64,000 bases of DNA from Escherichia phage vB_EcoM_G10400. Under the pieces are notes generated by a model. That model worked only from the letters and a program-made list of their open reading frames with translations, made no database searches and had not been told where the DNA came from. Position numbers and translations under genes: made by a program. The stretch lies in the sequence record MK327937.1; one strand, 5' to 3'. Below are positions 3,902 through 62,187 of the stretch, piece by piece. Numbering within the stretch: position 1 is the first letter of the stretch; each line of letters opens with the position of its first letter.

Positions 3902-4012
<111 letters not shown>

Positions 4013-23937: not shown

Positions 23938-24010
23938 TTTATTCTCCTTTGTTTATGTAAGATAATACTATCACAAAGGAACTATACTGTAAACAACTTT
24001 ATGCAATCTT

Positions 24011-30334: not shown

Positions 30335-30337
30335 AGC

Positions 30338-40808: not shown

Positions 40809-40833
40809 TTTATTCTCCTTAGTTGATAAGGCT

Positions 40834-40863
40834 ATAGTATCACTACCATAGCCTGTTGTAAAC
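40834..40863 (-). promoter_or_regulatory. Candidate early promoter (GTTTAC, 18-nt spacer, TACTAT)
   Basis: Minus-strand GTTTAC 40858-40863 and TACTAT 40834-40839; member of repeated promoter family. Confidence 0.45.
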
Positions 40864-40865
40864 AA

Positions 40866-41159
40866 TTATTTTTGAATTTTATCGAGCCACTTACCAAGCT
40901 TAATCATTTCTTTAGTAGCCTTTTCCATACTTCTGAACTTAACCAATAGAGGATAGGTATCGACACCCATAACTAAACTGGTTACAAGACTGTGTTCACC
41001 CACAAGCCATAACGAATACGTTTGAATATCGAGCCCGTAATTTCTGTCTTTGTGGACCCGTACACCTATCACTTCAAATTTCTCACTAGCTTTTTCTACC
41101 GCATCCAGGAAATCATCTTTAGTCATATTAGGCCTTAAAAGTTTTTCGCAAAAGTTCAA
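40866..41159 (-). CDS. Hypothetical protein
   Basis: 97-aa ORF. Confidence 0.45.
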   Translation of the reverse strand: MNFCEKLLRPNMTKDDFLDAVEKASEKFEVIGVRVHKDRNYGLDIQTYSLWLVGEHSLVTSLVMGVDTYPLLVKFRSMEKATKEMIKLGKWLDKIQK

Positions 41160-41550
41160 TGATTTCGTCTACATTGTTTTCATCTACAATGCAGTGAATT
41201 TTTGTTACGCCAGAAACCTTGTCTTTGACTTCATCTTCTTCAGAAGTCGGTTCTTTATACTCGCGAAAACAATGAAATTCGTCTTCACAAACGTTAAAGT
41301 AAAAATGCTTTCCATTTGCGCATTCAATGTGTTTTATTACTCTAAATCCATCAACAAAGAAAGCTTCTTTAACTTCAAACCATCCGCCGTTTTCTTGAAT
41401 AATTTTAACTATTGATGAATTAGAACGTGGGCGATAATTAATAAATGTATCAATAAGTCTTGGAACAAGCTCATACTTTTTGCCGATATACATTACGGTT
41501 TCCTCATTTTGATAGGGGCTTGATAGAGCCCCTTGATAATTATTGTTCAA
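41128..41550 (-). CDS. Hypothetical protein
   Basis: 140-aa ORF. Confidence 0.5.
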
Positions 41551-41767
41551 TCAGTCCCATGTAAAATTCTGCGTCTTCAGAATCCATGCCATCACAATAT
41601 TCATTAGCCATAAAGCGGGTGAGGTCTTCAAGAGGACCTTCAATAACGATTTGAATACTCCAAAACTTAGAATCTTGTACGCTTGTGATACTAAGTTCAG
41701 GATAACGATTACGAATAATTTCTTCAATATATTCAAAATCAACGATGTCAATATCAACTTTAGCCAT
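41540..41767 (-). CDS. Hypothetical acidic small protein
   Basis: 75 aa from MAKVDIDIV with AAGAGGA SD; ORF-track start 41830 would include the promoter -10. Confidence 0.5.
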
Positions 41768-41810
41768 ATTATTTTCCTCTTTAATTATCAGCAGTATTGC
41801 CGATAGTTGT

Positions 41811-41840
41811 ATAGTACCATGGAAGGACAAGGATGTAAAC
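41811..41840 (-). promoter_or_regulatory. Candidate early promoter (GTTTAC, 18-nt spacer, TACTAT)
   Basis: Minus-strand GTTTAC 41835-41840, extended TG, TACTAT 41811-41816; conserved flanks shared with elements near 58500, 61640, 62150. Confidence 0.5.
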
Positions 41841-41859
41841 CGTTTTGTGAAAAATTTTT

Positions 41860-41889
41860 AAAATAAAAAAGGGGACCCTAGAGGTCCCC
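41860..41889 (-). terminator. Intrinsic terminator downstream of gene 32
   Basis: GGGGACC-CTAGA-GGTCCCC hairpin followed on minus strand by U-run. Confidence 0.6.
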
Positions 41890-41911
41890 AATTAATTAGT
41901 AATATAATCTA

Positions 41912-42820
41912 TTAAAGGTCATTCAAAAGGTCATCCAGGTCCGTGTCATCAGCACTAGATGAACTGCCAGAGCTTGAGCTCATAAAATCATCTTCAGTTT
42001 TTGTATTGAAGTCATCAACATTGAATGCATCCAAATCATCAGCAACTTTATCAGCTTTCTTAGCAGCAGTTGCAGCGGCACCGCCCATCACAGCAGTTCC
42101 CATAACTTGACCGAATTTAGTGCTCAGTTCTTCAAATGATTTGAATTTATCTTTAGAAGTCATTTCAGAAAGGTCAACCATTTGTTCGAACAGTTCTTTC
42201 TGAAAAGATTCATCATCAATGTTTGGAATCGCAGATTGATTCAGGAATTTAGATTCATCGTAGTTACTAAATCCAGAAACCTGTTTAACTTTCAGTACAA
42301 AGTTAGCACCTTCCCACGGACAAGTTACATCAACCGGAGTTTCACCCATTTCAACATCAACTGCAATCATTGCATTGATTTTATCCCAGATTTTCTTACC
42401 GAAACGGTATTTAAATACTTTACCTTCATTTTCTGGAGCAGCTGGGTCTTTTACAACAAGAATGTTAGCCCAGTAAGAAGTTTTACGTTTAACAAGACTG
42501 TACTCTTTATTGTCAGTGTTGTACAGATCATTTTTACTGATGTATTGACATACTGGGCAAGAATCGTAATCACCGTGGGTAGATGAACAGTTTTCAATAT
42601 ACCATTTACCATTTTTCTTGAAACCGTGATTTACAAGAATTGCGAATGGTGCTTGTTCATCATTTTTAGACGGAAGAAAACGAATTACTGCTTGACCGTT
42701 ACCCGCATTGTCGAGTTTCAGTTTCCACTCGCCTTTATCTTCAGAAGAAAAACCACCTTTATTTCCAGCCAGTTTAGCCATTTGCGCAGCGAGTTCAGCA
42801 GTAGATTTACGTTTAAACAT
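41912..42820 (-). CDS. 32: Single-stranded DNA-binding protein gp32
   Basis: About 301 aa; [17 protein letters not shown]... and acidic C-terminal tail ...[15 protein letters not shown] as in T4 gp32. Confidence 0.95.
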
Positions 42821-42895
42821 TTTTATTTCCTTTTTAATTTAATTAACAGTTGGTGCTATGACGATGTATGACCTCATAGCTGGTCAATGAGATAA
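42821..42895 (-). promoter_or_regulatory. Gene 32 translational operator (5' leader pseudoknot plus A/U-rich gp32 binding tract)
   Basis: Leader reads ...AGCUAUGAGGUCAUACAUCGUCAUAGCAC... followed by UUAAUUAAAUUAAAAAGGAAAUAAAAAUG, matching the autoregulatory leader as I recall it. Confidence 0.55.
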
Positions 42896-42919
42896 TTATA
42901 ATCTATTTATAATAAGCAA

Positions 42920-43573
42920 TTAATACTTACAAGATTTCACAGTTTCAATGAAAACATTTTTAGCTTTCTGTGAATCAATATTTAAAATTTTTCTATAAGC
43001 CTTTAACTTTATAGAATAATTATTCCAGACTAAATTATCAGTCTGTTCATCATGTTTATCAATTATATTTAAAAATGAATCAAGCAAGATAAACGTCTCA
43101 AACGAAATTATGTTCGATTGCAGAAGTTTAAAAATATAACTTGACTGAACCTTTGGATTATATTCAAAGATTTCTTTAAAAGCAGAAACTTCAACTTTTT
43201 TACTAAAATAGTAAATATTGCGAATATCTTCTTCAAACTTAAACTTAATTTGCTTTAAGCGTCCGATATATTCACGATAAAACACAAGTGCATCAGCGTC
43301 AGAGATGTCACCAATCCAAGCATCTTGGTTAGCAACCAAATTACTTATAAAGATTAAAGCAAGTTCCTTTAATTTATATTTTTCTGATAACTTCTGGAAA
43401 AAATACTTATCCCTTCGCTTTTGATAAGCGGCATCAGACACCCGCATGCACCAATTATACTTAATTACATCATACTTTCCATTCATATGCTGTTTTATCA
43501 TTAAGTATAATTTATAAACTGATTTACCATCAATGTATCTTTCACCACCAGCAGGCATGCGGAGTTTAATCAT
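42920..43573 (-). CDS. 59: Helicase loader gp59
   Basis: 217 aa; synteny next to gene 32. Confidence 0.85.
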   Translation of the reverse strand: MIKLRMPAGGERYIDGKSVYKLYLMIKQHMNGKYDVIKYNWCMRVSDAAYQKRRDKYFFQKLSEKYKLKELALIFISNLVANQDAWIGDISDADALVFYREYIGRLKQIKFKFEEDIRNIYYFSKKVEVSAFKEIFEYNPKVQSSYIFKLLQSNIISFETFILLDSFLNIIDKHDEQTDNLVWNNYSIKLKAYRKILNIDSQKAKNVFIETVKSCKY

Positions 43574-43908
43574 AGCAGAAAATCTAATGTATTAGTTTTT
43601 TCACAACGAACAACAGAAGGACGTAAAAGATTTTCGTCAATAGCTTCTGACTGAATTTTTTCAATTATACCCGAAGGAATAAATTTAGCAAATTGAGTTT
43701 CAGGAATAGAATTTTCTTCCAAGAATGCTGTTGTAGCTTCAAGATAACTCATTCCAAACTCTTCTACCATTTTTTCAATAATAAATCCGTTTTCTTGACG
43801 ATCAAGAAGCTTTGCTATTTCATCCTTTTCTTTCTTGATTGAAAGTTCTTTTTCTGAAAGACCGGTCTCATCGACCGGACGAATATCATTTAGAGAAAAC
43901 TGTGTCAT
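43570..43908 (-). CDS. 33: Late transcription co-activator gp33
   Basis: About 112 aa from MTQFSLNDIR; synteny. Confidence 0.75.
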   Translation of the reverse strand: MTQFSLNDIRPVDETGLSEKELSIKKEKDEIAKLLDRQENGFIIEKMVEEFGMSYLEATTAFLEENSIPETQFAKFIPSGIIEKIQSEAIDENLLRPSVVRCEKTNTLDFLL

Positions 43909-44155
43909 AAAGTTCAACTACCTCTTCAGTTTCAGCTTCAAACACATCACGGTTATCTTTATGATACAAAGCTAATAGACGATTAAACATCTTACCATCA
44001 ACGCCAAGTTCATCTTTAGCACGAATTCGAATATCTTTAATTAGTTCATTATAACCGGAAATTTTCAGTTTATGATCAGATGCTTCTTTAATAAATTTAG
44101 CCAAGTCTTCGCCATGGATAGCTTCATCAAATTCAACCATTTCTTTTTTAGCCAT
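43886..44155 (-). CDS. dsbA: dsDNA-binding protein DsbA
   Basis: 89 aa; synteny between rnh and 33. Confidence 0.75.
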   Translation of the reverse strand: MAKKEMVEFDEAIHGEDLAKFIKEASDHKLKISGYNELIKDIRIRAKDELGVDGKMFNRLLALYHKDNRDVFEAETEEVVELYDTVFSK

Positions 44156-44163
44156 TATTCACC

Positions 44164-45081
44164 TCAAAATTCATTAATGCTATTAGTTAATTTAGAAAGA
44201 CCCGCTTTTACAAAATATGAATAAATTTTGCCACGCGGTGGTAATTTATATGAATTATAGTAATTCACAATGTTTGAAGCAATATTATCAGGAATATAAT
44301 CAAAATCAATTAGAACTAAATTTTCTTTATAACGATTATATTCAGATTCTGTGAGAAGCACCTTAGCTTGCTCACGGTCATTAGCAATAGCTTCAACGAT
44401 TGAAGTTTTCATTGAAGGAGTTCGTTCACCTTCAACTTTGGTAAACCAAAAGTCAGATCGTACTTTAACTGAAGCAACGTTATCCTTTTTGTCGCCTTTA
44501 AGGATTTTAGTCATACAGTCAATTTCAGCAGAACCGCTTTTAATTTTAACCCATTTCTTGTGCATCGGTGACCATTGCTTAACATTTGGATATTTGTGAA
44601 GCTGTGTAAAGTCACCATCCGATGAAATGATTAAAATCTTGTGTCCTTCTAAAGAGAACTTTTTAACAAGAACAGCAATGTGGTCATCTGCTTCATACTT
44701 ATCAATATCCATAACAATGTATGGCATATAAGCTTTCAATTCATCTATGACTTTATGACTGGATTCAAAATAACCTTCCCAGTCCCAAGTAGATTCTTCT
44801 CGTGCTTTTCCGCGGTTTTTCTTGTAATAGTAAGCAAAATCACGACGCCAATATCCAGATTTCGCATTATCAATACACAGTACAATTTTAGTGTATCCAA
44901 GCGTTTTTGCTTTTTTGACATTAAACTTAATTGAGTTCAATATCAAATGACGAACCATTGATAAATTAATTTTTTCTTTATCTGGGAAGTTTACCAAAGC
45001 AGTTGAAAGCGCAATTTGACTAAAGTCAATAAAGCAAATTCCTTCTTTGTAATCTTCATCCAACATCATTTCTAAATCCAT
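44164..45081 (-). CDS. rnh: RNase H (5'-3' exonuclease / flap endonuclease)
   Basis: 305 aa from MDLEMMLDEDYKEG; matches my recall of T4 RNase H. Confidence 0.9.
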   Translation of the reverse strand: MDLEMMLDEDYKEGICFIDFSQIALSTALVNFPDKEKINLSMVRHLILNSIKFNVKKAKTLGYTKIVLCIDNAKSGYWRRDFAYYYKKNRGKAREESTWDWEGYFESSHKVIDELKAYMPYIVMDIDKYEADDHIAVLVKKFSLEGHKILIISSDGDFTQLHKYPNVKQWSPMHKKWVKIKSGSAEIDCMTKILKGDKKDNVASVKVRSDFWFTKVEGERTPSMKTSIVEAIANDREQAKVLLTESEYNRYKENLVLIDFDYIPDNIASNIVNYYNSYKLPPRGKIYSYFVKAGLSKLTNSINEF

Positions 45082-45143
45082 ATGAACCTCGTTCAATTAG
45101 TGAGATTTCTATTATATACCATCCAAATCTTAAAGTAAACAAG

Positions 45144-45151
45144 TATAAATA
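45144..45151 (+). promoter_or_regulatory. Late promoter core TATAAATA for gene 34
   Basis: TATAAATA about 35 nt upstream of gene 34 ATG (45186), SD TAGGAG. Confidence 0.6.
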
Positions 45152-45185
45152 CTTATTATTGAAAACACAATAGGAGCCCGGGAGA

Positions 45186-48100
45186 ATGGCCGAGATTAAA
45201 AGAAAGTTCAGAGCAGAAGATGGTCTGGACGCAGGTGGTGATAAAATAATCAACGTAGCTTTAGCTGATCGTGCCGTAGGAACTGACGGCGTTAACGTTG
45301 ATTACTTAATTCAAGAAAACACAGTTCAACAATATGATCCAACTCGTGGATATTTAAAAGATTTTGTAATCATTTATGATAACCGCTTTTGGGCTGCTAT
45401 AAATGATATTCCAAAACCAGCAGGAGCTTTTAATAGCGTACGATGGAGAGCGTTACGTACTGATGCAAACTGGACAACTGTTTCATCAGGACCTTATCAA
45501 TTAAAATCGGGCGAATCAATTTCAGTTGATACTGCAGCTGGTAATGACATTACATTTACTTTACCATCTTCTCCAATTGATGGTGATACCATCGTTCTCC
45601 AAGATATTGGAGGAAAACCTGGAGTTAATCAAGTTTTAATTACAGCTCCGGTACAAAGCATTGTAAATTTTAGAGGTCAGCAAGTACGTTCAGTACTAAT
45701 GACTCATCCAAAATCACAGATAGTTTTAATTTTTAGTAATCGTCTGTGGCAAATGTATGTTGCTGATTATAGTAGAGAAGCTGTAGTTGTAACTCCTGCG
45801 AGTCTCTATCAGGCACAATCAAACGATTTTATCGTACGTAGATTTACTTCTGCTTCAGCAATTAATATTAAACTTCCAAGATTTGCCAATCATGGCGATA
45901 TTATTAATTTCGTTGATTTGGATAAATTAAATCCTCTTTATCACACAATTGTTACTACATATGATGAAACAACTTCAGTACAAGAAGTTGGAACTCATTC
46001 CATTGAAGGTCGTACATCGATTGACGGTTTCTTGATGTTTGATGATAATGAGAAATTGTGGAGATTGTTTGACGGGGATAGTAAAGCACGTTTACGCATT
46101 ATAACAACTAATTCTAATATTCGTCCAAACGAAGAAGTCATGGTATTTGGCGCGAATAATGGAACAACCCAAACAATTGAACTTCAGCTTCCGACTGATA
46201 TTTCTGTTGGTGATACTGTCAAAATTTCCATGAATTACATGAGAAAAGGACAAACGGTTAAAATCAAAGCTGCAGGTGAAGATAAAATTGCTTCTTCAGT
46301 TCAATTGCTGCAATTCCCAAAACGCTCAGAATATCCACCTGAAGCTGAATGGGTAACAGTTCAAGAATTAGTTTTTAATGGTGAAACTAATTATGTACCA
46401 GTTTTGCAACTTGCTTATATTGAAGATTCTGATGGAAAATACTGGGTTGTACAGCAAAATGTTCCAACCGTAGAAAGAGTAGATTCTTTAAATGATTCTA
46501 CTAGAGCAAGATTAGGCGTAATTGCTTTAGCTACACAAGCTCAAGCTAATGTCGATTTAGAAAATTCTCCTCAAAAAGAATTAGCAATTACTCCAGAAAC
46601 GTTAGCTAATCGTACTGCTACAGAAACTCGCAGAGGTATTGCAAGAATAGCAACTACTGCTCAAGTGAATCAGAACACCACATTCTCTTTTGCAGATGAC
46701 CTTATCATTACTCCTAAAAAGCTGAATGAAAGAACTGCTACAGAAACTCGTAGAGGTGTCGCAGAAATTGCTACGCAGCAAGAAACTAATACAGGTACTG
46801 ATGATACTACAATCATTACTCCTAAAAAGCTTCAAGCTCGTCAAGGTTCTGAATCATTATCTGGTATTGTAACCTTTGTATCTACTGCAGGAGCTACTCC
46901 AGCTTCTAGCCGTGAATTAAATGGTACGAATGTTTATAATAAAAACACTAATAATTTAGTTGTTTCGCCTAAAGCTCTGGATCAGTATAAAGCTACTCCA
47001 ACGCAACAAGGTGCAGTAATTTTAGCAGTTGAAAGTGAAGTAATTGCTGGACAAAGTCAGGAAGGATGGGCAAATGCGGTTGTAACGCCAGAAACGTTAC
47101 ATAAAAAGACATCAACTGATGGAAGAATTGGTTTAATTGAAATTGCTACGCAAAGTGAAGTTAATACAGGAACTGATTATACACGTGCAGTCACTCCTAA
47201 AACTTTAAATGACCGTAGAGCAACTGAAAGTTTAAGTGGTATAGCTGAAATTGCTACACAAGTTGAATTCGACGCGGGCGTCGACGATACTCGTATCTCT
47301 ACACCATTAAAAATTAAAACCAGATTTAATAGTACTGATCGTACTTCTGTTGTTGCTCTATCTGGATTAGTTGAATCAGGAACTCTCTGGGACCATTATA
47401 CCCTTAATATTCTTGAAGCAAATGAGACACAACGTGGTACACTTCGTGTGGCTACACAAGTAGAAGCTGCTGCTGGAAAATTAGATAATGTTTTAATAAC
47501 TCCTAAAAAGCTTTTAGGTACTAAATCTACTGAAGCACAAGAAGGTGTTATTAAAGTTGCAACTCAGTCTGAAACTGTGACTGGAACGTCAGCAAATACT
47601 GCTGTATCTCCAAAAAATTTAAAATGGATTGTGCAGAGTGAACCTACCTGGGCAGCTACTACTGCAGTAAGAGGCTTTGTTAAAACTTCATCTGGTTCAA
47701 TTACATTTGTCGGTAATGATACAGTCGGTTCTACCCAAGATTTAGAACTGTATGAGAAAAATAGTTATGCAGTATCACCATATGAATTAAACCGTGTATT
47801 AGCAAATTATTTGCCATTAAAAGCAAAAGCTGCGGATAGTAATTTATTGGATGGTCTAGATTCATCTCAGTTCATTCGTAGGGATATTGCGCAGACGGTT
47901 AATGGTTCACTAACCTTAACTCAACAAACGAATCTGAGTGCCCCTCTTGTATCATCTAGTACTGCTACGTTTGGTGGATCAGTTTCGGCAAATAGTACAC
48001 TAACTATTTCTAATACTGATAGAACAGCAACTCGTCTGATTTTTGAGAAAGGATCTCAAACTGGAACGAACCCGGCTCAAACGATGACAGTCAGCGTGTG

Positions 48101-49058: not shown

Positions 49059-49066
49059 GAGGTATT

Positions 49067-50182: not shown

Positions 50183-50187
50183 ATTGA

Positions 50188-50210
50188 GGGAGCCTTCGGG
50201 TTCCCTTTTT
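50188..50210 (+). terminator. Intrinsic terminator after gene 35
   Basis: GGGAGCC-TTCG-GGTTCCC hairpin followed by TTTTT. Confidence 0.6.
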
Positions 50211-50213
50211 CTT

Positions 50214-50221
50214 TATAAATA
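50214..50221 (+). promoter_or_regulatory. Late promoter core TATAAATA for gene 36
   Basis: TATAAATA 24 nt upstream of gene 36 ATG. Confidence 0.6.
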
Positions 50222-50244
50222 CTATTAAAATAAAGGGGCATACA

Positions 50245-50901: not shown

Positions 50902-50909
50902 GAGGACTT

Positions 50910-53900
50910 ATGGCTACTTTAAAACAAATACAATTTAAAAGAAGCAAAACTGCAGGAGCACGTCCTGCCGCTTCAGTATTAGCCGAAGGTGAATTGGCTA
51001 TAAACTTAAAAGACCGTGTACTTTTTACTAAAGATGACCAAGGAAATATTATTGATCTGGGTTTTGCTAAAGGCGGTAGTATTGACGGGAATGTTATTCA
51101 TACAGGCAATTATAACCAAACTGGCGATTATACTTTAAATGGTGTCTTCACTCAGACTGGTAATTTTAATTTAACTGGTATTGCTCGAGTAACTCGCGAT
51201 ATTATTGCCGCTGGGCAGATTATGACTGAAGGCGGAGAACTTATTACAAAAAGTTCAGGTACAGCGCATGTTCGTTTTTTCGATAACAATAGTCGCGAAC
51301 GCGGAATCATTTATGCCCCGGCTAATGATGGTTTAACTACACAAGTACTTAATATCAGGGTTCAAGACTACGCCGCTGGTAGCGAAAGCACTTATGCATT
51401 TTCAGGCAGTGGACTATTTACTTCACCTGAAGTATCAGCATGGAAATCTATTTCGTCTCCACAAATTCTAACCAACAAAGTCATTACTAATAATAAATCT
51501 ACGGGTGATTATGACATCTATTCGATGGCAGACAATGTTCCATTGTCTGAAAGCACTACTGCTATTAATCATCTTCGTGTCATGCGTAATGCCGTTGGTT
51601 CTGGTATTTTCCATGAAGTTAAAGATAATGATGGAATAACTTGGTATGCAGGTGATGGACTTGACACCTATCTTTGGTCATTTACTTGGAGCGGCGGAAT
51701 TAAATCGAGTCACTCAATTTCTATTGGTTTAACACCTGGTAATAAAGATTATTCAATATTAGGACCATCTAGTATTGCTTTAGGAGATAATGATACTGGA
51801 TTTAAATGGCATCAAGATGGATATTATTTTAGCGTTAATAATGGAACAAAAACGTTTTTATTTAGTCCTAGCGAAACAACTAGCCTAAGAAAATTTGTAG
51901 CTGGATATTCTACTAACGGAACCGATTTAACTACTCCTCCAACTGAAAACTATGCATTAGCCACTGTTGTTACTTACCATGATAATAACGCATACGGCGA
52001 CGGTCAAACTCTTTTAGGATATTATCAAGGCGGTAACTATCATCATTATTTCCGCGGTAAAGGTACTACAAACATTAATACTCACGGCGGTTTGTTAGTT
52101 ACTCCTGGTAATATTGACGTTATTGGTGGTTCTGTTAATATCGATGGTAGAAATAATAATTCAACTTTAATGTTTAAAGGCTATACCATGGGTCAAAGCT
52201 CCGTTGATAACATGTATATAGCTGTTTGGGGAAATACTTTTACTAATCCAAGTGAAGGCACCCGTAAAAATGTCATGGAAATTTCTGATGATATTGGATG
52301 GATGCATTATATTCAACGAACAACTGCAGGTAAAGTCGAATCGGTTCTAAACGGCACCCAGATTGTTAATGAAAACTTGACCGTAGTAAAAAATGCTACA
52401 TTTGATGGTACAATCAGCGCAGCAGGTGAAATTTCATCTGGGGCTGTGAATGCGCTTCGTATTTGGAACGCAGATTATGGAGCTATTTTTAGACGTTCAG
52501 AAGGCAGTCTTCATATTATTCCAACTGCTTACGGTGAAGGTAAATATGGCGATATCGGTCCACTTCGCCCGTTTAGTATGGCTTTAGATACCGGTAAAGT
52601 TACTATTCCAGATTTACAATCAAGTTACAATACGTTTGCTGCTAACGGTTATATTAAATTTGTTGGTCATGGAGCGGGTGCCGGCGGTTATGACATTCAA
52701 TATGCTCAAGCGGCTCCTATTTTCCAGGAAATTGATGATGATGCTGTAAGCAAATATTATCCTATTGTTAAACAGAAGTTTTTAAATGGTAAAGCTGTTT
52801 GGTCTTTAGGTACTGAAATTAGTTCAGGTACATTCGTTATTCATCATCTGAAAGAAGATGGTTCACAAGGCCATACGTCTCGTTTTAATCAAGACGGTAC
52901 TGTTAACTTCCCAGATAACGTTTCTGTCGGCGGCGGTGAAGCTACTATTGCTCGCAATGGTAATATCTGGTCTGATATCTGGAAAACGTTTACTTCAGCA
53001 GGCGACGTAACTAATATTCGCGATGCAATAGCTACTCGTGTTGCTAAAGAAGGTGATACGATGACCGGTAGGTTGACTTTATCTGCTGGAAATGATGCCC
53101 TTGTTTTAACTGCAGGCACGGGCGCTTCATCGCACATCCGTAGTGATGTAGGTGGTACAAATAATTGGTTTATAGGCAAAGGCGGCGGCGACAATGGTCT
53201 AAGTTTTTACAGTTACATTACACAAGGCGGTGTGAACATAACAAATAACGGCGAAATAGCGCTTTCTCCTCAAGGACAAGGAGCGTTTAATTTTAATAGA
53301 GACCGCCTTCATATAAACGGTACACAATGGACCGCACACCAGGCTGGCGATTGGGGAAATCAATGGCGCCAGGAAGCTCCTGTATTTGTGGATTTTGGTA
53401 ATGTCGGTAATGATAGTTATTATCCTATTATTAAAGGAAAATCTGGTATTACTAATGAAGGGTATATATCTGGTGTAGATTTTGGTATGCGACGCATTCC
53501 TAATAACTGGGCACAAGGTATTATTCGTGTAGGTAATCAGGAAAACGGTTCCGACCCACAAGCTGTCTTCGAATTCCACCATAATGGAAACATGTACGTT
53601 CCTGACATGGTTAAAGCTGGAGTAAGAATATCAGCTGGTGGAGGTGACCCTGCATGGACAGACGCATGTGTTGTTATTGGTGATAATGACACCGGATTAG
53701 TTCATGGTGGTGACGGCCGAATCAATATGGTTGCCAATGGTATACATATTGCAAACTGGGGAGCAGGCTATCAATCTCATCCTGGGCTTTGGGATTCAAC
53801 CGGTGCTTTTTGGACAGAAGTTGGAAGAGCTATCGTTTCTCATGGGCATCTCGTTCAGGCAAATGATAGTTATTCAACGTTTGTCCGTGATGTTTATGTC

Positions 53901-54239
53901 CGTTCTGATATTCGTGTTAAAAAAGACCTTGTTAAATTTGAAAATGCTTCTGAGAAGCTTTCAAAAATTAATGGTTACACTTATATGCAGAAGCGAGGCC
54001 TAGATGAAGAAGGTAATCAAAAATGGGAACCTAATGCCGGTTTAATTGCCCAAGAAGTTCAAGCTATTTTACCTGAATTAGTTGAAGGCGATCAGGATAG
54101 TGAAGCTTTACTTCGTTTGAACTATAACGGTGTAATTGGTTTAAATACAGCTGCAATCAATGAGCATACTGCAGAAATTGCAGAACTTAAATCAGAAATT
54201 GAAGAACTTAAAGCATTAGTTAAATCATTGTTAAAATAA
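50910..54239 (+). CDS. 37: Long tail fibre distal subunit gp37 (T2-type, with C-terminal coiled-coil chaperone-like extension)
   Basis: 1109 aa, longer than the 1026-aa T4 gp37 I recall; C-terminus ...[26 protein letters not shown]. Confidence 0.85.
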
Positions 54240-54244
54240 TAAGA

Positions 54245-54258
54245 GGGGCTTCGGCCCC
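54245..54258 (+). other. GC stem-loop with UUCG tetraloop in the 37-38 intergenic region
   Basis: GGGGC-TTCG-GCCCC immediately before the gp38 SD GGAGG; only a short T-run, so attenuator or RNA stability element rather than strong terminator. Confidence 0.45.
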
Positions 54259-54270
54259 TTGGAGGTTTAT

Positions 54271-55047
54271 ATGGCAGTAACAGGACCGTGGGTAGGATCG
54301 TCTGCAGTAGTTAATACAGGACAAAATTGGATGGGTGGTGCCGCGCAGAGATTGAGAATGGGAATTCCGTTTTGGATGAGTAATATGATAGGTAGATCTG
54401 TTGAAATAATTCACACGCTTGGAGCAGACCATAACTTCAATGGTCAATGGTTCCGAGATAGATGTTTTGAGGCAGGTAGTGCACCTATAGTGTTTAATAT
54501 CACTGGAGATTTAGTATCATATTCTAAAGATGTTCCTTTATTCTTCATGTATGGAGATACACCGAATGAATATGTTCAGTTGAATATACACGGCGTAACG
54601 ATGTATGGACGTGGCGGTAATGGCGGTAGCAATAGTCCTGGTTCAGCTGGAGGTCATTGTATTCAAAACGATATTGGTGGGAGACTAAGAATTAATAATG
54701 GCGGAGCTATTGCTGGAGGTGGCGGCGGTGGCGGTGGCGGATATTATTCTCCTTTTTCACAAATGAGATTGACTTTTGGAGGTGGCGGCGGGCGTCCGTT
54801 TGGCGCACCGGGCGGATCTATTGATATGCAATCAGGAGCAACTGCTGGTACTATTTCTGCGCCTGGCGCAGGGTCTGTGAACGGTATCTATAGCGGCGGT
54901 GGCGGTGGCGAAGTTGGCTCCGCAGGAGGTAGATGTAATATTCGTGGTCAAGGATATGAATACGATGGCGGAGCTGCTGGTTATGCCGTCATAGGGTCTA
55001 CACCGACATGGCAAAACGTTGGAGCAATATATGGTCCAAGAGTATAA
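54271..55047 (+). CDS. 38: T2-type receptor-recognising adhesin gp38 with glycine-rich motifs
   Basis: 258 aa from ATG 54271 (ORF track starts at a TTG); multiple poly-Gly stretches ([28 protein letters not shown]) separated by variable segments. Confidence 0.8.
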
Positions 55048-55066
55048 TTTGATAAAAGGAGGGTCT

Positions 55067-55723: not shown

Positions 55724-55996
55724 TTATTTGTTCGTATACATCTCTAGATATCGATATACACCCTCAAAACCCTCGTTGAATTCGTCGATGAGGGTTTTCT
55801 TATCTTCTTGAGTTAATTCAGAAACAATTTTACGGAATGAATTCTGATTTAATTTTCTACCTTCATGCGTTACTCCAATCTCATTCAGAAATGCAATAAA
55901 ATTAGCACGATTTTCAACAATATCTTCTCTGGAAAATTTAATCAAAATAGACGCAACAGTAATAATTTCACGAACTGTATCAATGTTTTTATTCAT
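55724..55996 (-). CDS. asiA: Anti-sigma-70 factor AsiA
   Basis: 90 aa; MNKNIDTVREIITVASILIKFSREDIVENRANFIAFLNEIG matches T4 AsiA as I recall it. Confidence 0.9.
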   Translation of the reverse strand: MNKNIDTVREIITVASILIKFSREDIVENRANFIAFLNEIGVTHEGRKLNQNSFRKIVSELTQEDKKTLIDEFNEGFEGVYRYLEMYTNK

Positions 55997-56008
55997 TAAC
56001 TATACCAC

Positions 56009-56161
56009 TCAATTAGTTGACTTTGTTATAATATCATCAGACGTTTGATTTGTAAACTGGTCTGTGTTATTTTCTTCAAAAATTTTTTCTACGAATTCTT
56101 TGAACGACTCACGTTCCTGAGCTACATTATGCTCGATTACCATTTCAAGATTATGACTCAT
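56009..56161 (-). CDS. Unlisted 50-aa acidic ORF (asiA.1-like)
   Basis: ATG overlaps stop of upstream gene (ATGA); MSHNLEMVIEHNVAQERESF...; below ORF-track cutoff. Confidence 0.4.
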   Translation of the reverse strand: MSHNLEMVIEHNVAQERESFKEFVEKIFEENNTDQFTNQTSDDIITKSTN

Positions 56162-56436
56162 TCGAAATAATCTTCAATTTCGTAATCATGGACATAAATC
56201 ATTATAGTTTTTAATACATCATCGATACTTTTTCCCGGAGCTGGAATTACGTAAAAATATCCTGCTTTTGAGAGGTCTTTATAAGTTCCAACCAAGAAAT
56301 CATTATTCTCAAGATGCAGTTCTTCAACTAATTCATTAACAATTGAACGGTATAAATTTGGTAAAAACTTATATAGCTTTTCTAGAATATCAATTTTGAT
56401 TGTATATTGAACCACGGACTGAGAATCAATAATCAT
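56158..56436 (-). CDS. arn: Probable anti-restriction nuclease Arn (acidic DNA-mimic-like protein)
   Basis: 92 aa, net acidic, located between asiA and motA as arn is in T4; assignment by size and synteny only. Confidence 0.5.
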   Translation of the reverse strand: MIIDSQSVVQYTIKIDILEKLYKFLPNLYRSIVNELVEELHLENNDFLVGTYKDLSKAGYFYVIPAPGKSIDDVLKTIMIYVHDYEIEDYFE

Positions 56437-56519
56437 AGACCTTCCCCTTATGTTTCTGTTTGCGATTAGATTCTTTAAACGCTTTCTTCTTATCCTTATG
56501 AACAGAAGCTTTATTAAAA

Positions 56520-56738
56520 TTATGTTTTGCGACTAAATTGTTCATAGTGCTGAATTACCTCTCTTAAACATTTGCATGTGAATGAAAACTTTTTAGCTAC
56601 ACCACATTCAAATATATGTTCTCTTAAATCGCGTGTATCGGTATATCCCATCTCAACAATAAAATGCCGTATTAGATTTTTATCTTTATCATTGAGAGAA
56701 TTAAAATAATCAGATTTTGAATTAATTTCCCTGGCCAA
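56520..56738 (-). CDS. Hypothetical protein with Cys pairs
   Basis: 72-aa ORF. Confidence 0.45.
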   Translation of the reverse strand: MAREINSKSDYFNSLNDKDKNLIRHFIVEMGYTDTRDLREHIFECGVAKKFSFTCKCLREVIQHYEQFSRKT

Positions 56739-57018
56739 ATTGAATCACCTTCAGTTGACGTTTTAATTCTTTTATCATTTCTTCGTTCATCGCAATATAA
56801 AGATCGCGTAAAGCAGGTTTTAGCATTCCATTTACCGGAGAACTAAATGGGCATACATAATCTTTTCCTACGAGCTTTTTAGTGAATTCCATATCACAGA
56901 ACTTAAATCCCGGCTCATTGGTATAAATTCCCCAATTAGTTGACATCATTTTATTGGCATATTCTAGTGCCTGGATTTGATTCATAATTCCATCAATTTG
57001 AAACTTTTTAATATTCAT
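56722..57018 (-). CDS. Hypothetical protein
   Basis: 98-aa ORF. Confidence 0.45.
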   Translation of the reverse strand: MNIKKFQIDGIMNQIQALEYANKMMSTNWGIYTNEPGFKFCDMEFTKKLVGKDYVCPFSSPVNGMLKPALRDLYIAMNEEMIKELKRQLKVIQFGQGN

Positions 57019-57479
57019 TAGTAAAGGTCCTCAGAGTAAAGTTCTTTTTCACTACCACCACGTTCAATACGTACTTGTCCGGCATAAGTTGCAATAATCA
57101 TTGCTTCTTCACGTGTCCAATAATTACTATATTGGTCAATAAATCCTTGGTCATCATCACAAACTTGCTGAGTAACTAATTGAGGTTTAACTACATCTAA
57201 AACTTCTGCCATATCTTTAGAATAATGACGAGCACCTGGAATAATAAGAGTTCGTCCATCTTTTAATTTAAAGCGATTTGCTGCACAGACAATTCGTCGT
57301 TGATACTTTTGGTTTTCATCCCAATATGCAGTCTGCCAACAGATTTCAGGAACTTCTTTCAGAATATCTTCTTCTGTGCATTTATAACCATGCGCTTTAA
57401 ATTTTTGAACAAGACTCTCCGGAGTCTCACGAGATAAAGGAACATTCAGCATTTTTAAACGATTGATAAATGGGTTCAT
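57018..57479 (-). CDS. Hypothetical protein
   Basis: 153-aa ORF. Confidence 0.5.
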
Positions 57480-57805
57480 TTAAACCATCCTTTAATACGC
57501 TGCCACAAAGTTTTCTGTTGAGCTTTGTTAACACCAATTGAGCGAATAACTGGTTGAGATTCCTGGAATTCTTTATAATCAGCAAGGTAAATTTCGTAAG
57601 CTGCATCCGTAAATGAACTTATCGCTGCCATAAAATTATTGCGAATACCTACTGGAGCATCTTTACTTTCACGAATAATCATGTATTTACCAGTCTTAAT
57701 CTTTACGATAGTTCCAAGATAAGCTCCATGATACCAGATGTCCCACCCCTCTTGAGTGGGTTCTGCACAACGACGAAGTTCATTGACAATTTCTAACTTG
57801 TTCAT
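57476..57805 (-). CDS. Hypothetical protein (motA.1-like)
   Basis: 109-aa ORF. Confidence 0.5.
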
Positions 57806-57815
57806 TATTTATTCC

Positions 57816-58451
57816 TCACAGTTCAGATGCTACAGTGATTACAGCTTCAATGTTTTCTGCCGAGCGTTTAATGTCAAGATACACATTACCGTTTTTAGCG
57901 ATTTTACATGACATTCCGATATCAGTAAATTTCTGAATATGATGTTCCATCATTTTGTATCCAAAAATTCGCATATTTCCATTGTTGTTAATTTCAAAAT
58001 TACGAATTCCGTGAGTGCGTTTTTCTAAAATAGCGAGATAATTACTACGATAAGTTTCAACCTTTTTAAGAACAAATCCATTTTCATCTAAAAGTTTTAA
58101 CATGAGGTCTTTATCTTCTTCCATATCGGAAGTAATCTCGCGAGCTTTACGAGTTGCTCGTTTTTTCAGCAGTTCCGGAGCATTTTCCTGTGCATATAAA
58201 GTTGCTGCATTTGAAATAATATCCTGAGCTTCACCAGTAATGATTAATCCATCACCAGATTTCTCCACCAGGCCTTTTTTAATCAATACCCCAATATTAC
58301 TATTAACTACTGCGTTACCTAAATCTGGATGCACCTCACGAACTTCTGCAGCTGTAATGAAATCTTTCTTAGCAATGGTAATTAAAATCGCAGCAGTTTT
58401 TTCATTCAGAACATCGTTAGAAGCTTTGATGATGTAAGTTACTTTAGACAT
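57816..58451 (-). CDS. motA: Middle-transcription activator MotA
   Basis: 211 aa; MSKVTYIIKASNDVLNEKTAAILITIAKKDFITAAEVREVHPDLGNAV matches T4 MotA as I recall it. Confidence 0.9.
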   Translation of the reverse strand: MSKVTYIIKASNDVLNEKTAAILITIAKKDFITAAEVREVHPDLGNAVVNSNIGVLIKKGLVEKSGDGLIITGEAQDIISNAATLYAQENAPELLKKRATRKAREITSDMEEDKDLMLKLLDENGFVLKKVETYRSNYLAILEKRTHGIRNFEINNNGNMRIFGYKMMEHHIQKFTDIGMSCKIAKNGNVYLDIKRSAENIEAVITVASEL

Positions 58452-58492
58452 TTTCTAATCTCCGTAATTCTGTATCAGTAGTTGATAGTTGT

Positions 58493-58522
58493 ATAGTACC
58501 ACAGTATGCTTTGGTTGTAAAC
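58493..58522 (-). promoter_or_regulatory. Candidate early promoter for motA (GTTTAC, 18-nt spacer, TACTAT)
   Basis: Minus-strand GTTTAC 58517-58522, TACTAT 58493-58498; motA SD GGAG and ATG follow. Confidence 0.5.
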
Positions 58523-58552
58523 CGTTTTGTGAAAAAATTTTAAAATAAAAAA

Positions 58553-58570
58553 GGAGAGCCGAGGCTCTCC
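58553..58570 (-). terminator. Intrinsic terminator downstream of gene 52 operon
   Basis: GGAGAGCC / GGCTCTCC inverted repeat followed on minus strand by U-run. Confidence 0.55.
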
Positions 58571-58576
58571 CTAAAA

Positions 58577-58726
58577 TTACTGCATGACAGTTATCACAGT
58601 CATGATAACACGTTGAATTCCGAACGCAAGAAGACCTCCTGCTACGGCTGGAACAACACCTAAACCCGCCAGTAAAATGCTACCAGATACTAATGCAGCG
58701 CTTGTAATACCTATGAATGGACTCAT
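58577..58726 (-). CDS. Unlisted 49-aa hydrophobic membrane peptide (52.1-like)
   Basis: ATG overlaps gene 52 stop (ATGA); MSPFIGITSAALVSGSILLAGLGVVPAVAGGLLAFG...; two predicted TM helices. Confidence 0.45.
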   Translation of the reverse strand: MSPFIGITSAALVSGSILLAGLGVVPAVAGGLLAFGIQRVIMTVITVMQ

Positions 58727-60051
58727 TTGATTTCCTCTAAATCTTTGGTGTATTCTGTAACTACATCAGTAGTTTTCCAATATTCGTTTTCTTCTTTTTT
58801 AGCTTTAGCTTCTTCAGCAAGTTTCTTCGCTTCATCGGAAGTCATATGAAAAATATTCATTCCAACTAGTTTATCAACATAAGAAGAATACATATCGATT
58901 TTCGAAAGTTCTTCGGTCAGTTCTTTACGAGTTTTACCCTGTACAACAATTTCACCTGAAATTACTTTCTTAATGAAATGTGCCTTGGCAAAGGCTAAAC
59001 GAAATGCTGATTCAGTTTCTTTAATTTTGTTATCAATTCGTTTTTGGACATAAGTTTTACGAACTTCAACGAAGTCTTTAATTAAATCGACTACGTTATC
59101 GTAAACTTGTAGTTTTCCTTTCTCATTAATAACCGTAATATTCTGAGAACGACGCTCAATCAACCCGAAGTCTTTCATAATTTTTGCATGGCGTTCTTCT
59201 TCGTTATTGCTCAAAGAGTATTCTTTGCGGAATTTAACTTTGAAGCCAAAACCATGCTCACCGCAAGCATCATCCCATGTAATGAAGCCTTTATCTTCAA
59301 GTGGGTCTAAGATTTTACTCACATAAGTTTCACGATCATACTTATATGGAATCTCAGTGATATGCATTTGAGTTCGTGAAGTAAACTTATATGTTCCACG
59401 AATTTCATACTGCCCATCAATTTCAACAACTTCACCACGAAATTCTGGGAATTCTACCTTCGGTTTAGTTACTTTCTTTCCTTGAAGAGCTTGCAGTACA
59501 GCTTTCTTAACAGAAGAAACACTATGAGGAAGAATGTAAGTTGCATAACCAGTTGCAATACCGGAAACGCCATTAAGAAGAACAGTAGGAATAATAGGCA
59601 AATAGAAAGCAGGCGGAATGTGTTCTTTATCTTGATGTACCGGAGCATATTCAGTATCTTTATATACGTTATAGAAATTTTTACTTACACGAGCAAAAAT
59701 ATAACGACTTGCCGCTGCCTTTTGGACAGTACGAGAACCGAAGTTTCCTTGGCCATCTAACAAAGGAAAGTTATTATTCCAAGTGTTAGCCATCAAAGCA
59801 CCTGCGTCTTGTGCAGAGTTTTCGCCATGGTGATATCCAAGGTCCGCTACACCACCTGCAATAGAAGCGAGTTTGTGAAACTTATCTTTATTTCCTCGTG
59901 CCAAATCAAGAGCTCGAGCAATAACAAATCGTTGAACTGGCTTAAATCCATCAATCATATTTGGGATAGCACGATTTTCAACCGTGTACATAGCATAAGC
60001 CAATGCTTCATTATCAATGATACTTTTTAAATCGCGATTATTCAGTTGCAT
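58723..60051 (-). CDS. 52: DNA topoisomerase II medium subunit gp52
   Basis: 442 aa; GyrA/ParC-like N-terminal breakage-reunion domain (AMYTVENRAIP..., active-site Tyr region). Confidence 0.9.
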   Translation of the reverse strand: MQLNNRDLKSIIDNEALAYAMYTVENRAIPNMIDGFKPVQRFVIARALDLARGNKDKFHKLASIAGGVADLGYHHGENSAQDAGALMANTWNNNFPLLDGQGNFGSRTVQKAAASRYIFARVSKNFYNVYKDTEYAPVHQDKEHIPPAFYLPIIPTVLLNGVSGIATGYATYILPHSVSSVKKAVLQALQGKKVTKPKVEFPEFRGEVVEIDGQYEIRGTYKFTSRTQMHITEIPYKYDRETYVSKILDPLEDKGFITWDDACGEHGFGFKVKFRKEYSLSNNEEERHAKIMKDFGLIERRSQNITVINEKGKLQVYDNVVDLIKDFVEVRKTYVQKRIDNKIKETESAFRLAFAKAHFIKKVISGEIVVQGKTRKELTEELSKIDMYSSYVDKLVGMNIFHMTSDEAKKLAEEAKAKKEENEYWKTTDVVTEYTKDLEEIK

Positions 60052-60055
60052 AAAT

Positions 60056-60196
60056 TTACCATACTAGTGAATGTAGTGCCATAATAACATCAGAAATGAA
60101 AAGCACGACTTGAATTAATCCGAACATTACTCCATAATATAGTGCTACTAATAAAGTAGCAAGGGCTAATGAATAGCCCAAGATTTTCTTAATCAT
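60056..60196 (-). CDS. Unlisted 46-aa hydrophobic peptide upstream of gene 52
   Basis: MIKKILGYSLALATLLVALYYGVMFGLIQVVLF...; overlaps the next upstream small ORF by 8 nt. Confidence 0.4.
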   Translation of the reverse strand: MIKKILGYSLALATLLVALYYGVMFGLIQVVLFISDVIMALHSLVW

Positions 60197-60347
60197 TAGT
60201 AGATAACAACACAAATGTTAAATATGCACACATACCCTGAGCTAAAGCTTGTGAAAACACGCTGCTGGCATCAATACAGATAGTTAAAACACATGCTACT
60301 ATCCAACAAATAAATGAAATAACTCCTAATAATTTTGCAATATTCAT
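60189..60347 (-). CDS. Unlisted 52-aa membrane peptide (possibly ac, acridine sensitivity locus)
   Basis: GAGGA SD then MNIAKLLGVISFICWIVACVLTIC...; lies between stp and 52 where T4 ac maps; assignment tentative. Confidence 0.4.
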   Translation of the reverse strand: MNIAKLLGVISFICWIVACVLTICIDASSVFSQALAQGMCAYLTFVLLSTND

Positions 60348-60354
60348 ATTTTCC

Positions 60355-60435
60355 TCACTGGCGTCCGAAGACGCCTTTAGTTTTAAGATTATTACGATAG
60401 AACTGCATCACGTGTTCGTTGTGGAAATTACTCAT
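60355..60435 (-). CDS. stp: Stp peptide (26 aa), activator of the host PrrC anticodon nuclease
   Basis: Translates exactly to [26 protein letters not shown]; start ATG shares a base with ndd stop (TAATG). Confidence 0.85.
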
Positions 60436-60893
60436 TAATATGCCTGCAAAACGAATTTAAAATTATCAGCCAACATACGGTTCATTTCTTCAAGTGTTTG
60501 ATACTCAGAATGATGATTACGAGTAAACGCTAAAGCTAACTGTCCTTTTCCAAATCCCGTCGTCAGAGGTTTCATCTTAGAAGCAGGCAGATAAAATACT
60601 GTGTATGGAACATTGTTATTTGCAATAGTACGTGCAAGCTGAGACCGACGTTGACGAATATGACTTAGAACTGCACTGAATCCTTGCTTAGAACGCTGAT
60701 TACCTACATAAAATCGTGCTGACACACATGGATTACTAAATGGACGACCATCTAATTTACTTACTAAAAAGTAAAATCCAGGTTTAGATAAAATATCTTT
60801 ATGCGGGGTTCCCAAAAACCATTCACCACCCTTGATTGTACCAATAACAGTAGCGCCTGCGTTGTTCAGATCAGTAACAGTCATGTATTTCAT
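60435..60893 (-). CDS. ndd: Nucleoid disruption protein Ndd
   Basis: About 151 aa from [18 protein letters not shown]; matches my recall of T4 Ndd; ORF-track start 60947 is an extension. Confidence 0.8.
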
Positions 60894-60951
60894 ATTAATT
60901 TCCTCTAAATTATTTTCTACTCCATGGCCGCATGAATACACGGCCATTAAA

Positions 60952-61167
60952 TTAATCGTCGCAGTCGACGCTCAATTCCCAAAACTCTTCTACGGTATAA
61001 GTTTCAGTATCATTTTCAATACAGAAACGTTCATTACTGTTATTTACTAAAGTAGCGTTAACTGTCATTTTCTCGCTGGTGCTCTTAAGAGGCGAAATAC
61101 GAATTAACTGATCACCGTTATCTAAACAGAAAATTTCGCCAACTTTTACATCTTTAAAACTTTTCAT
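60952..61167 (-). CDS. Hypothetical protein (ndd.1-like)
   Basis: 71-aa ORF. Confidence 0.5.
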
Positions 61168-61282
61168 AATTCACCTCAAGGAGTATAAAATCCAAACGCA
61201 GTTGTTGACCATCCCATCCAATATGGAAAATTTGCACCAATGTAAAACATAAGAATATAAAACCAACCGCTCAGCAAATTCA

Positions 61283-61501
61283 TCATTTTACACCATTCCA
61301 AATTGTTTCAACCACGGATTTTAAACCATTTTGATGAATATCCATTCCGACTACTGCCATCAAATAGATTCCAACTACAACTGAACCTAAGGCAAAAATC
61401 AGCATGAAAATGAATAAAGCCGGAAAAATATTATCGAAAAACCATTCAATAAATGTAAAAGCACTGCGTTTACGCTTCATATTTTCCTCACATAAATCCA
61501 A
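61283..61501 (-). CDS. Small membrane protein, hypothetical
   Basis: Hydrophobic core FPALFIFMLIFALGSVVVGIYLMAVVG; start uncertain. Confidence 0.45.
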   Translation of the reverse strand: MDLCEENMKRKRSAFTFIEWFFDNIFPALFIFMLIFALGSVVVGIYLMAVVGMDIHQNGLKSVVETIWNGVK

Positions 61502-61601
61502 AGTAAACGTTTAATACATCAATCATTAAAACGATTGGGAATATACTCAAAACTATTAGTATTATAACTACATTCCATATAGCTTTAACAATCTTTTTCA
61601 T
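61488..61601 (-). CDS. Small membrane peptide (37 aa), hypothetical
   Basis: GGAGG SD then MKKIVKAIWNVVIILIVLSIFPIVLMIDVL; ORF-track longer version would include promoter. Confidence 0.45.
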   Translation of the reverse strand: MKKIVKAIWNVVIILIVLSIFPIVLMIDVLNVYFGFM

Positions 61602-61629
61602 TTTCTGTTCCTCCGTAGTTGATAGGGTA

Positions 61630-61659
61630 ATAGTACCACGGAAGAACAGTCTTGTAAAC
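61630..61659 (-). promoter_or_regulatory. Candidate early promoter (GTTTAC, 18-nt spacer, TACTAT)
   Basis: Minus-strand GTTTAC 61654-61659 and TACTAT 61630-61635. Confidence 0.45.
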
Positions 61660-61843
61660 AACTTTTTAAAAATATTCGTAATAAATGTGAATACCAACTA
61701 CTACCGCTGAAACTTGCACAACCCACCACGCACAAGCAATAAGTACAGAATTCAAAATTTTCATAATAACCTCATTACAAAAGTAAATGTTAAACAAATT
61801 ACTGGAATACTAATTAACCAAACAAAACACCACCACAGTGAAC

Positions 61844-62107
61844 TCATAGTTCAATCTCAGCGATTTTCATTTCATTATTGTTAATAGCATTTTTAAGACT
61901 ATCCGAAAGAATTACATTCCAGTGGTCATTCATATGACCATTAACTAAGCGTGTAATTTCTTCGGGAGTTGAAAAATAAGGCGTATCAGACTCCCAATGC
62001 GATAATCCTAAGCGAGTATAAATCATACCTTCATCATCGCTAGAATATTCAACTGACACAAACTCATCAGTTATTTTATGCTTAGCATAATAAAATTTAA
62101 ATTTCAT
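61844..62107 (-). CDS. Hypothetical protein (87 aa)
   Basis: GGAGAG SD then MKFKFYYAKHKITDEF...; ORF-track start 62206 would include promoter. Confidence 0.5.
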   Translation of the reverse strand: MKFKFYYAKHKITDEFVSVEYSSDDEGMIYTRLGLSHWESDTPYFSTPEEITRLVNGHMNDHWNVILSDSLKNAINNNEMKIAEIEL

Positions 62108-62141
62108 TTTACTCTCCAAATCAGTATCAGTTGATAGTTGT

Positions 62142-62171
62142 ATAGTACCACGGTCCTTGTGGTATGTAAAC
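62142..62171 (-). promoter_or_regulatory. Candidate early promoter (GTTTAC, 18-nt spacer, TACTAT)
   Basis: Minus-strand GTTTAC 62166-62171 and TACTAT 62142-62147. Confidence 0.5.
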
Positions 62172-62187
62172 TGTTTTGTGAAATTTT

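Follow-up and report, generated by a model that had tools for sequence, protein, structure and literature searches.

Five TACTAT-type elements of Escherichia phage vB_EcoM_G10400 as probable early promoters of the T4 class

Five minus-strand elements and the genes that follow them

The sequence considered here, referred to as the window, is a stretch of 64,000 nucleotides from Escherichia phage vB_EcoM_G10400 (sequence record MK327937.1), and the elements of interest are five candidate early promoters on its minus strand that combine a GTTTAC hexamer with a TACTAT hexamer and that each precede a Shine-Dalgarno (SD) sequence and the ATG of an open reading frame (ORF). In a BLAST comparison with T4 the window is collinear with T4 positions 108,527-168,903; its right end is 97% identical to many Tequatrovirus genomes, and at the two loci tested vB_EcoM_G2540 is 100% identical to it. 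All five sites have a positional T4 orthologue with the same hexamers, situated before genes that T4 annotates as early functions. The sites and their orthologues are as follows.

40834..40863, minus strand: site 1, core of GTTTACA, 17-bp spacer, TGA and TACTAT; predicted +1 A at 40827; ATG of the frd.1 homologue at 40808; T4 orthologue at 146114-146143, between frd.2 and frd.1
41811..41840, minus strand: site 2, core; predicted +1 A at 41804; ATG of the frd.3 homologue at 41767; T4 orthologue at 146846-146875, between gene 32 and frd.3
58493..58522, minus strand: site 3, core of the candidate motA early promoter; predicted +1 A at 58486; ATG of motA at 58451, with GGAG in the SD; T4 orthologue at 163644-163673, upstream of motA and 100% identical
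61630..61659, minus strand: site 4, core; predicted +1 A at 61623; ATG of the ndd.4 homologue at 61601; T4 orthologue at 166778-166807, upstream of ndd.4
62142..62171, minus strand: site 5, core, directly after denB; predicted +1 A at 62135; 87-aa ORF at 62107..61844; T4 orthologue at 167057-167086, after denB

By direct reading, GTTTAC-N18-TACTAT is exact on the minus strand at all five coordinates, as the original prediction had it, and a search of the window with this pattern returned five exact and five one-mismatch copies, that is, 10 matches with at most one mismatch compared with 0.52 +/- 0.66 in shuffled sequences (shuffle maximum 2). The -35 region reads GTTTACA in 5/5 cases, and TGn precedes the -10 element at every site (TGA at site 1, TGG at sites 2-5). 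The 18-nt spacer of the earlier description is a framing convention of the T4 literature; in sigma-70 framing the element is TTTACA-N17-TACTAT, with a 17-bp spacer between the two hexamers throughout. The 25 nt upstream of the sites are 76-84% A+T, compared with 64% for the whole window, and this UP-like tract at -40 to -60 would be available for contact with the C-terminal domain of the polymerase alpha subunit (alpha-CTD). The sites are all intergenic or at gene ends, and the SD-preceded ATG that had been expected just downstream lies 26-44 nt after the -10 element in each case, leaving predicted leaders, from start A to ATG, of 19-37 nt.

Outside these elements the copies are less alike than the term "near-identical", originally applied to them, would imply. 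Ungapped identity among the five sites over -60 to +20 is 49-70%, compared with 27 +/- 5% for random 80-mers of the window; the spacers vary freely, and the sites are identical only in functional blocks. The flanks that had been called conserved are so only in part: upstream, only sites 2 and 3 have an exact AAAACGG, site 5 reads AAAACAG and sites 1 and 4 have other sequences; downstream, ACAACTATCAAC is exact only at sites 3 and 5, and all five have TATC in common, and most copies extend it to cTATCaaC. A position weight matrix (PWM) was applied to both strands, as the original prediction had recommended; in leave-one-out runs each omitted site ranked 5th-6th among ~128,000 positions. The PWM built from the five copies alone scored these at 66-87 and the next match at 18; it was rejected as a detector on account of overfitting and replaced by the general pattern TTTACW-N17-TAnnnT.

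With the general pattern, 12 minus-strand matches were obtained in the window against a null of 1.7 (maximum 5), and 10 of the 12 possess TG; one additional minus-strand promoter with a 16-nt spacer lies outside this set. The plus strand is at chance level, with TG at none of its matches, and the minus-strand bias matches the counter-clockwise orientation of the T4 prereplicative genes. The expectation of at least five copies is borne out by the five exact ones, which are the TACTAT subset of a larger family that comprises ~12 early promoters in this window.

The sites also bear on gene starts. Mechanically called ORFs at 40566..40865, 41540..41830, 61488..61697 and 61844..62206 have starts that fall within a promoter or upstream of it, and the SD-preceded ATGs of these four over-extended frames are at 40808, 41767, 61601 and 62107, respectively; once re-started, the frd.1 and frd.3 products equal the T4 genes in length. 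The earlier suspicion of over-extended starts is therefore upheld for four of the five genes and fails for motA, the ORF of which (57816..58451) is not over-extended. For annotation purposes, the promoter sites set reliable 5' boundaries for small early genes and correct the four over-extended ORFs of the window. The annotated start of ndd.4 in T4 (T4 166764) lies only 8 nt beyond the point where transcription is predicted to begin, overlaps a GGAGG SD sequence and corresponds to ACG in the window; the ATG situated 15 nt downstream (window 61601) is likely the true ndd.4 start, in which case the T4 annotation of ndd.4 is probably five codons too long. GGAG, the motif of the RegB endoribonuclease, is found in four of the five SD regions, within the leaders at 40808-40827, 58451-58486, 61601-61623 and 62107-62135; in T4, motA is an early product and RegB cuts the motA mRNA in its SD.

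Assignment to the T4 early class

The T4 early consensus places GTTTAC at -36 to -31 and the -10 element at -12 to -7 (with T-12, A-11 and T-7), preceded by a GT-rich run before -12 and by an A-rich segment at -40 to -44 (Nolan et al. 2006), and the class has been described as "UP/-35/TGn/-10" promoters with additional conserved positions (Hinton 2010). Since the five sites carry every element of both descriptions, they are best placed in the T4 early class, in agreement with the consensus match originally proposed, and the probability that they function as sigma-70-dependent early promoters (Pe) in a T4-like coliphage is put at about 0.93. This estimate draws on the sequence anatomy, the excess over chance, the strand bias, the orthology with T4 and the conservation across genera of exactly those positions that polymerase contacts; from these we infer polymerase binding, the timing of activity and the start sites in this phage.

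The T4 early promoters share genus, genomic positions, architecture and downstream genes with the five sites, and there is no essential difference between the two, the five sites being a sub-type with TACTAT and not the commonest, TATAAT-like -10 element; T4 itself contains at least eight TACTAT copies. Nothing in the five elements is new, since they are known as T4 early promoters and, in two cases, also as composite cassettes of an early promoter and a stem-loop (PeSL): T4 early promoters have been described for decades and PeSL cassettes for years. Compilations of the T4 early promoters are reportedly those of Wilkens & Rueger and of Miller et al. 2003. The phage analysed here departs from T4 in local details only, namely one swapped spacer (site 2), flipped terminator loops, and tiny ORFs that are present or absent beside promoters, together with other flanks at site 1 and another first ORF after site 5. 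Comparison with Escherichia coli extended -10 and UP-element promoters (the rrnB P1 UP element; TGn promoters) suggests the same contacts, that is alpha-CTD with the A/T tract and sigma region 3 with TG, and the same 17-bp spacer; unlike those, the five sites unite all four elements in one promoter, and they have phage-specific conserved positions (G at -36, T in place of G at -33, and a CTATC start context).

Conservation at greater distance was assessed for the region upstream of motA in eight genera, the set comprising, besides the window, Jiaodavirus, Gelderlandvirus, Karamvirus, Tegunavirus, Dhakavirus, Biquartavirus and one unclassified phage, with MotA identity ranging from 67% down to 42%. 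The invariant columns are T.TAC of the -35 element, TG at -15/-14, TA at -12/-11, AT at -8/-7, GGAG and ATG; the distances between them are constant, while the spacer and flanks diverge. Invariant contact columns combined with free spacers and flanks are the pattern predicted by selection on RNA polymerase contacts.

A connection between this pattern and transcription comes from four T4 early promoters for which transcript starts have been published at 150,727, 35,662, 41,225 and 27,044, three of them with primer extension (Patterson-West et al. 2018). In a scan of T4, all four of these starts lie exactly 7 nt after the -10 element of promoters with the same pattern. The start of Pe148.6 at 150,727 is 7 nt past the -10 element of T4 150734-150763, the orthologue of 45111..45140 in the window, and the promoter with its start at 27,044 shows the TACTAT-ACAACTATCAAC block also seen at sites 3 and 5. 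By analogy, the predicted start at each of the five sites is the conserved A located 7 nt past the -10 element. Another promoter, Pe144.6, has also been primer-extended in T4 (Patterson-West et al. 2018). Promoter names in the literature are in older map units that are offset by ~2.1 kb from current coordinates (Pe148.6, for example, starts at 150,727), and by this offset Pe144.6 is probably the T4 orthologue of site 2. The names Pe146, Pe163, Pe166 and Pe167 were not found in the literature searched or in the supplements of one paper, and the literature search returned no genome-wide study of T4 transcription start sites.

Under this assignment, unmodified host RNA polymerase holoenzyme would bind the five promoters right after DNA injection, with the alpha C-terminal domains touching the A/T-rich tract at -40 to -60, sigma region 4 recognizing TTTACA, region 3 TGn and region 2 TACTAT. 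Transcription would begin at the conserved A, 7 nt beyond the -10 element, and the resulting leaders of 19-37 nt would carry a strong SD, usually with GGAG, and the ATG of frd.1, frd.3, motA, ndd.4 and the 87-aa ORF. At sites 2 and 3 the promoter would operate directly behind the intrinsic terminator of the upstream operon, as in a PeSL composite cassette.

Other T4 promoter classes have to be weighed here, as middle promoters likewise possess a sigma-70-type -10 element, often with TGn, and in place of a -35 element have a MotA box, (a/t)(a/t)(a/t)TGCTTtA, centred at -30 (Hinton 2010). A middle promoter dependent on MotA/AsiA, or a late one dependent on gp55, is nevertheless a very unlikely reading of the five sites: all five have the -35 element that middle promoters are without (Hinton 2010), no MotA box (TGCTT at about -30) is present at any of them, and one of them drives motA itself, which has to be expressed before MotA exists. 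The late-promoter sequence TATAAATA, which defines that class at -13 to -6, does not occur within +/-30 nt of any of the five.

Some observations weigh against the early-promoter assignment. Transcript 5' ends have been reported neither for this phage nor, in the literature searched, for the exact T4 counterparts of the five, and the T4 records NC_000866 and AF158101 carry no annotated promoter features other than one note naming Pe133295. TACTAT agrees with TATAAT at 4/6 positions, although the three critical positions are kept and TGn is present. In a generic sigma-70 scan each of the five is called as TTTACA-17-TACTAT with TG, TTTACA being a 5/6 match to TTGACA at the optimal 17-bp spacing, yet the overall yield of the scan is not enriched over shuffles (28 vs 25.7; 36 vs 35.2); support for the assignment therefore comes from the specific extended pattern and not from generic promoter-likeness.

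The last of these observations, that generic promoter-like hexamer pairs occur at shuffle frequency in a genome of 64% A+T, is also what could suggest functionless chance matches in A/T-rich DNA. The probability of that explanation is close to negligible, as it is contradicted by the 10 matches observed for the specific pattern (0.52 expected), by the strict strand bias, by the location of the sites in intergenic or gene-end positions before an SD and ATG, and by their conservation in T4 and across genera.

Terminator hairpins, cassettes and possible exchange between copies

Two of the five promoters are preceded by a terminator hairpin, listed here with folding free energy (dG) and z-score.

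41871-41889, within 41841..41889, minus strand: intrinsic terminator hairpin of gene 32, GGGGACCTCTAGGGTCCCC; dG -15.2, z -2.3
58551-58572, within 58523..58572, minus strand: intrinsic terminator hairpin upstream of site 3; dG -19.4, z -4.8

The first hairpin is followed by a T-run and then by an A/T-rich UP-like tract that abuts site 2, the second by a T-run and an A/T-rich tract and then by site 3. Upstream of sites 1, 4 and 5 there is no convincing stem-loop and no T-run terminator (z -0.45, -1.95 and -1.43), and no Rfam family reaches threshold anywhere in the window. In the T4/PST pair, PeSL cassettes consist of a stem-loop just upstream, an AT-rich tract, TTTACW-N17-TAYWAT, and an SD with ATG (Comeau, Arbiol & Krisch 2014). 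TTTACW-N17-TAYWAT followed by an SD and a start codon is found at 5/5 sites, and at sites 2 and 3 every component of the published arrangement is present (Arbiol et al. 2010; Comeau, Arbiol & Krisch 2014); judged by sequence, these two are PeSL-type terminator-promoter cassettes. One depositor annotates a "terminator" and a "promoter" at an orthologue of site 3. Each hairpin is the exact reverse complement of its T4 orthologue, with the loop flipped, and for the gene-32 terminator two orientations are in circulation, the window form being present in 86 phage records and that of T4 in 382.

Like PeSL cassettes, the copies in the window are dispersed repeats beside variable small genes, and the similarity that extends beyond the polymerase contacts, covering the shared T-run and UP tract, the ATCAACTACTGATAC leader and the GGAGARTAAAATG start block, may be kept mainly by recombination or gene conversion between copies and not by per-base selection. 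The elements would in that case be portable PeSL-type regulatory cassettes that shuffle small genes, a plausible complement to their promoter function; as the main source of the extended similarity, we regard such exchange as possible, at somewhat below even odds. In favour of exchange, the 111-nt unit of site 3 has ~7-8 matches per genome in more than 470 phage genomes; against it, a stem-loop is present at only two of the five sites. In T4, the copy at 27.08 kb is composed of parts of three others, with the spacer of the 166.8 copy, the upstream sequence of the 163.7 copy and the downstream sequence of the 167.1 copy; the spacer of site 2 differs wholly between the window and T4 while its flanks are ~98% identical; and site 1 is an island of similarity between flanking cassettes that differ in the two phages. 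Against these indications of exchange stands the cross-genus footprint, which shows that selection on contact positions alone can keep the core. GGAGARTAAAATG occurs four times in the window, each time just downstream of an early promoter.

The interval after site 5 has four gene-content forms among relatives: 68-aa and 87-aa ORFs together (slur04, PST), the 87-aa ORF only (the window), the 68-aa ORF only (RB32), and neither (T4), the comparisons for PST and RB32 being taken from annotation tables. Sites 4 and 5 enclose the ndd.4/ndd.5 locus, for which an exchange model has been published (Comeau 2014, Fig. 6A). The differences at site 5 are, however, deletions between SD-ATG microhomologies of 8-12 nt and not promoter-promoter crossovers: the resolved junctions fall in repeats of the SD-ATG block (AAATGAAA; GAGTAAAATG) and do not involve whole-cassette crossovers as in PeSL, and of the 87-aa ORF (61844-62107, minus strand; MKFKFYYAKHK...MKIAEIEL) T4 keeps the last eight codons after a ~228-bp deletion between AAATGAAA repeats. 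Sites 1 and 5 adjoin differences from T4, and sites 3 and 4 are without rearrangement. Three of the 22 edges at which the alignment of the window with T4 breaks are within 40 nt of an early promoter (rough chance expectation ~0.5), although homing endonucleases, introns or tail-fibre swaps account for most indels between the two. Neither mini-circles nor recombinants were seen in this analysis; mini-circle formation has been shown only for RB49/phi1, by inverse PCR. The frd.3 promoter locus is polymorphic, with 86-100% identity among ~480 GenBank phages, a spread that does not resolve alleles, and an IMG/VR scan for spacer variants at this promoter gave one contig only.

Small ORFs differ around site 1. 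An 86-aa ORF (MTKDDFLDAVEK...) at 40866-41126 (minus strand), between frd.2 and site 1, is joined to frd.2 by TAATATG and is missing from T4; T4 has an unannotated hydrophobic ORF of 22 aa (MFAPYIMAAVMLVCLYLLIKAC) at ~146028-146096, between the promoter and frd.1. A 110-aa ORF at 40223-40555 (minus strand), between frd and frd.1, is part of a ~0.5-kb segment absent from T4.

Inverted repeats bracket the -10 element at 40827-40857 (site 1), at 23574-23602 and 26984-27013 (minus strand), and at T4 20.6 kb. The repeat of site 1 reads AGGCTAT/ATAGCCT, compared with AGGGTA/TACCCT in T4, a compensatory difference, and at motA promoters Aeromonas phage UP87 has AGGCTAT/ATAGCCT and IME341 has GGTCTAT/ATAGACC. 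Such repeats are weakly enriched over shuffled spacers, with stems of at least 6 bp in 4/18 promoters against 1.4 expected (P ~0.05), and for mean stem length P = 0.001. Taken together with the inverted terminator hairpins and the spacers swapped between paralogous copies, these repeats and their compensatory changes could point to cassettes that are structurally dynamic modules, in which hairpins control read-through transcripts or promoter DNA and templated exchange among copies is ongoing. We consider this reading unlikely; neither a hairpin control layer nor templated exchange is described in the PeSL literature consulted for comparison.

Further early promoters and other features of the window

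Apart from the TACTAT sites, the following early promoters are recognized in the window.

15045..15074, minus strand: GTTTACA-N17-TATAGT with TG; T4 orthologue at 123064-123093
23574..23602, minus strand: GTTTACT-N16-TATTAT with TG; 8-bp inverted repeat across the -10 element
23965..23994, minus strand: GTTTACA-N17-TAGTAT with TG; T4 orthologue at 130281-130310
26984..27013, minus strand: GTTTACT-N17-TATTAT with TG; orthologue of Pe133295 (T4 record)
30305..30334, minus strand: TATAGT with TG; T4 orthologue at 136307-136336
45111..45140, minus strand: upstream of rnh, GTTTACT-N17-TATAAT; T4 orthologue at 150734-150763, which is Pe148.6
56028..56057, minus strand: upstream of asiA, GTTTACA-N17-TATTAT with TG; T4 orthologue at 161182-161211

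The copies at 15021-15077 and ~30281-30337 (minus strand) are nearly identical over the core and the next ~20 nt (GTTTACAAGTCCCTCGTGTTGTGTTATAGTAGTCTTACT...), and their T4 orthologues at 123.1 and 136.3 kb resemble each other in the same manner. The promoter at 15021-15077 adjoins a 1.7-kb segment that is non-collinear with T4 (15093-16784).

Elsewhere in the window, an insert at 3836-3957 (plus strand) consists of adapter read-through (CTGTCTCTTATACACATCTCCGAGCCCACGAGAC, the index CGTACTAG, then ATCTCGTATGCCGTCTTCTGCTTG), which we take to be Illumina Nextera sequence, followed by a poly-A run of ~56 nt. The insert is flanked by a direct duplication of 36 nt (3800-3835 = 3977-4012), and the T4 alignment breaks exactly at 3835/3958; it has the appearance of an artefact of the source-genome assembly and not of biology. 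Differences from T4 at 34221-34277, 42883-42919 and 51076-55053 are that the window is without the homing-endonuclease genes mobE and segG and has a different distal tail-fibre/adhesin segment (gene 37-38 region).

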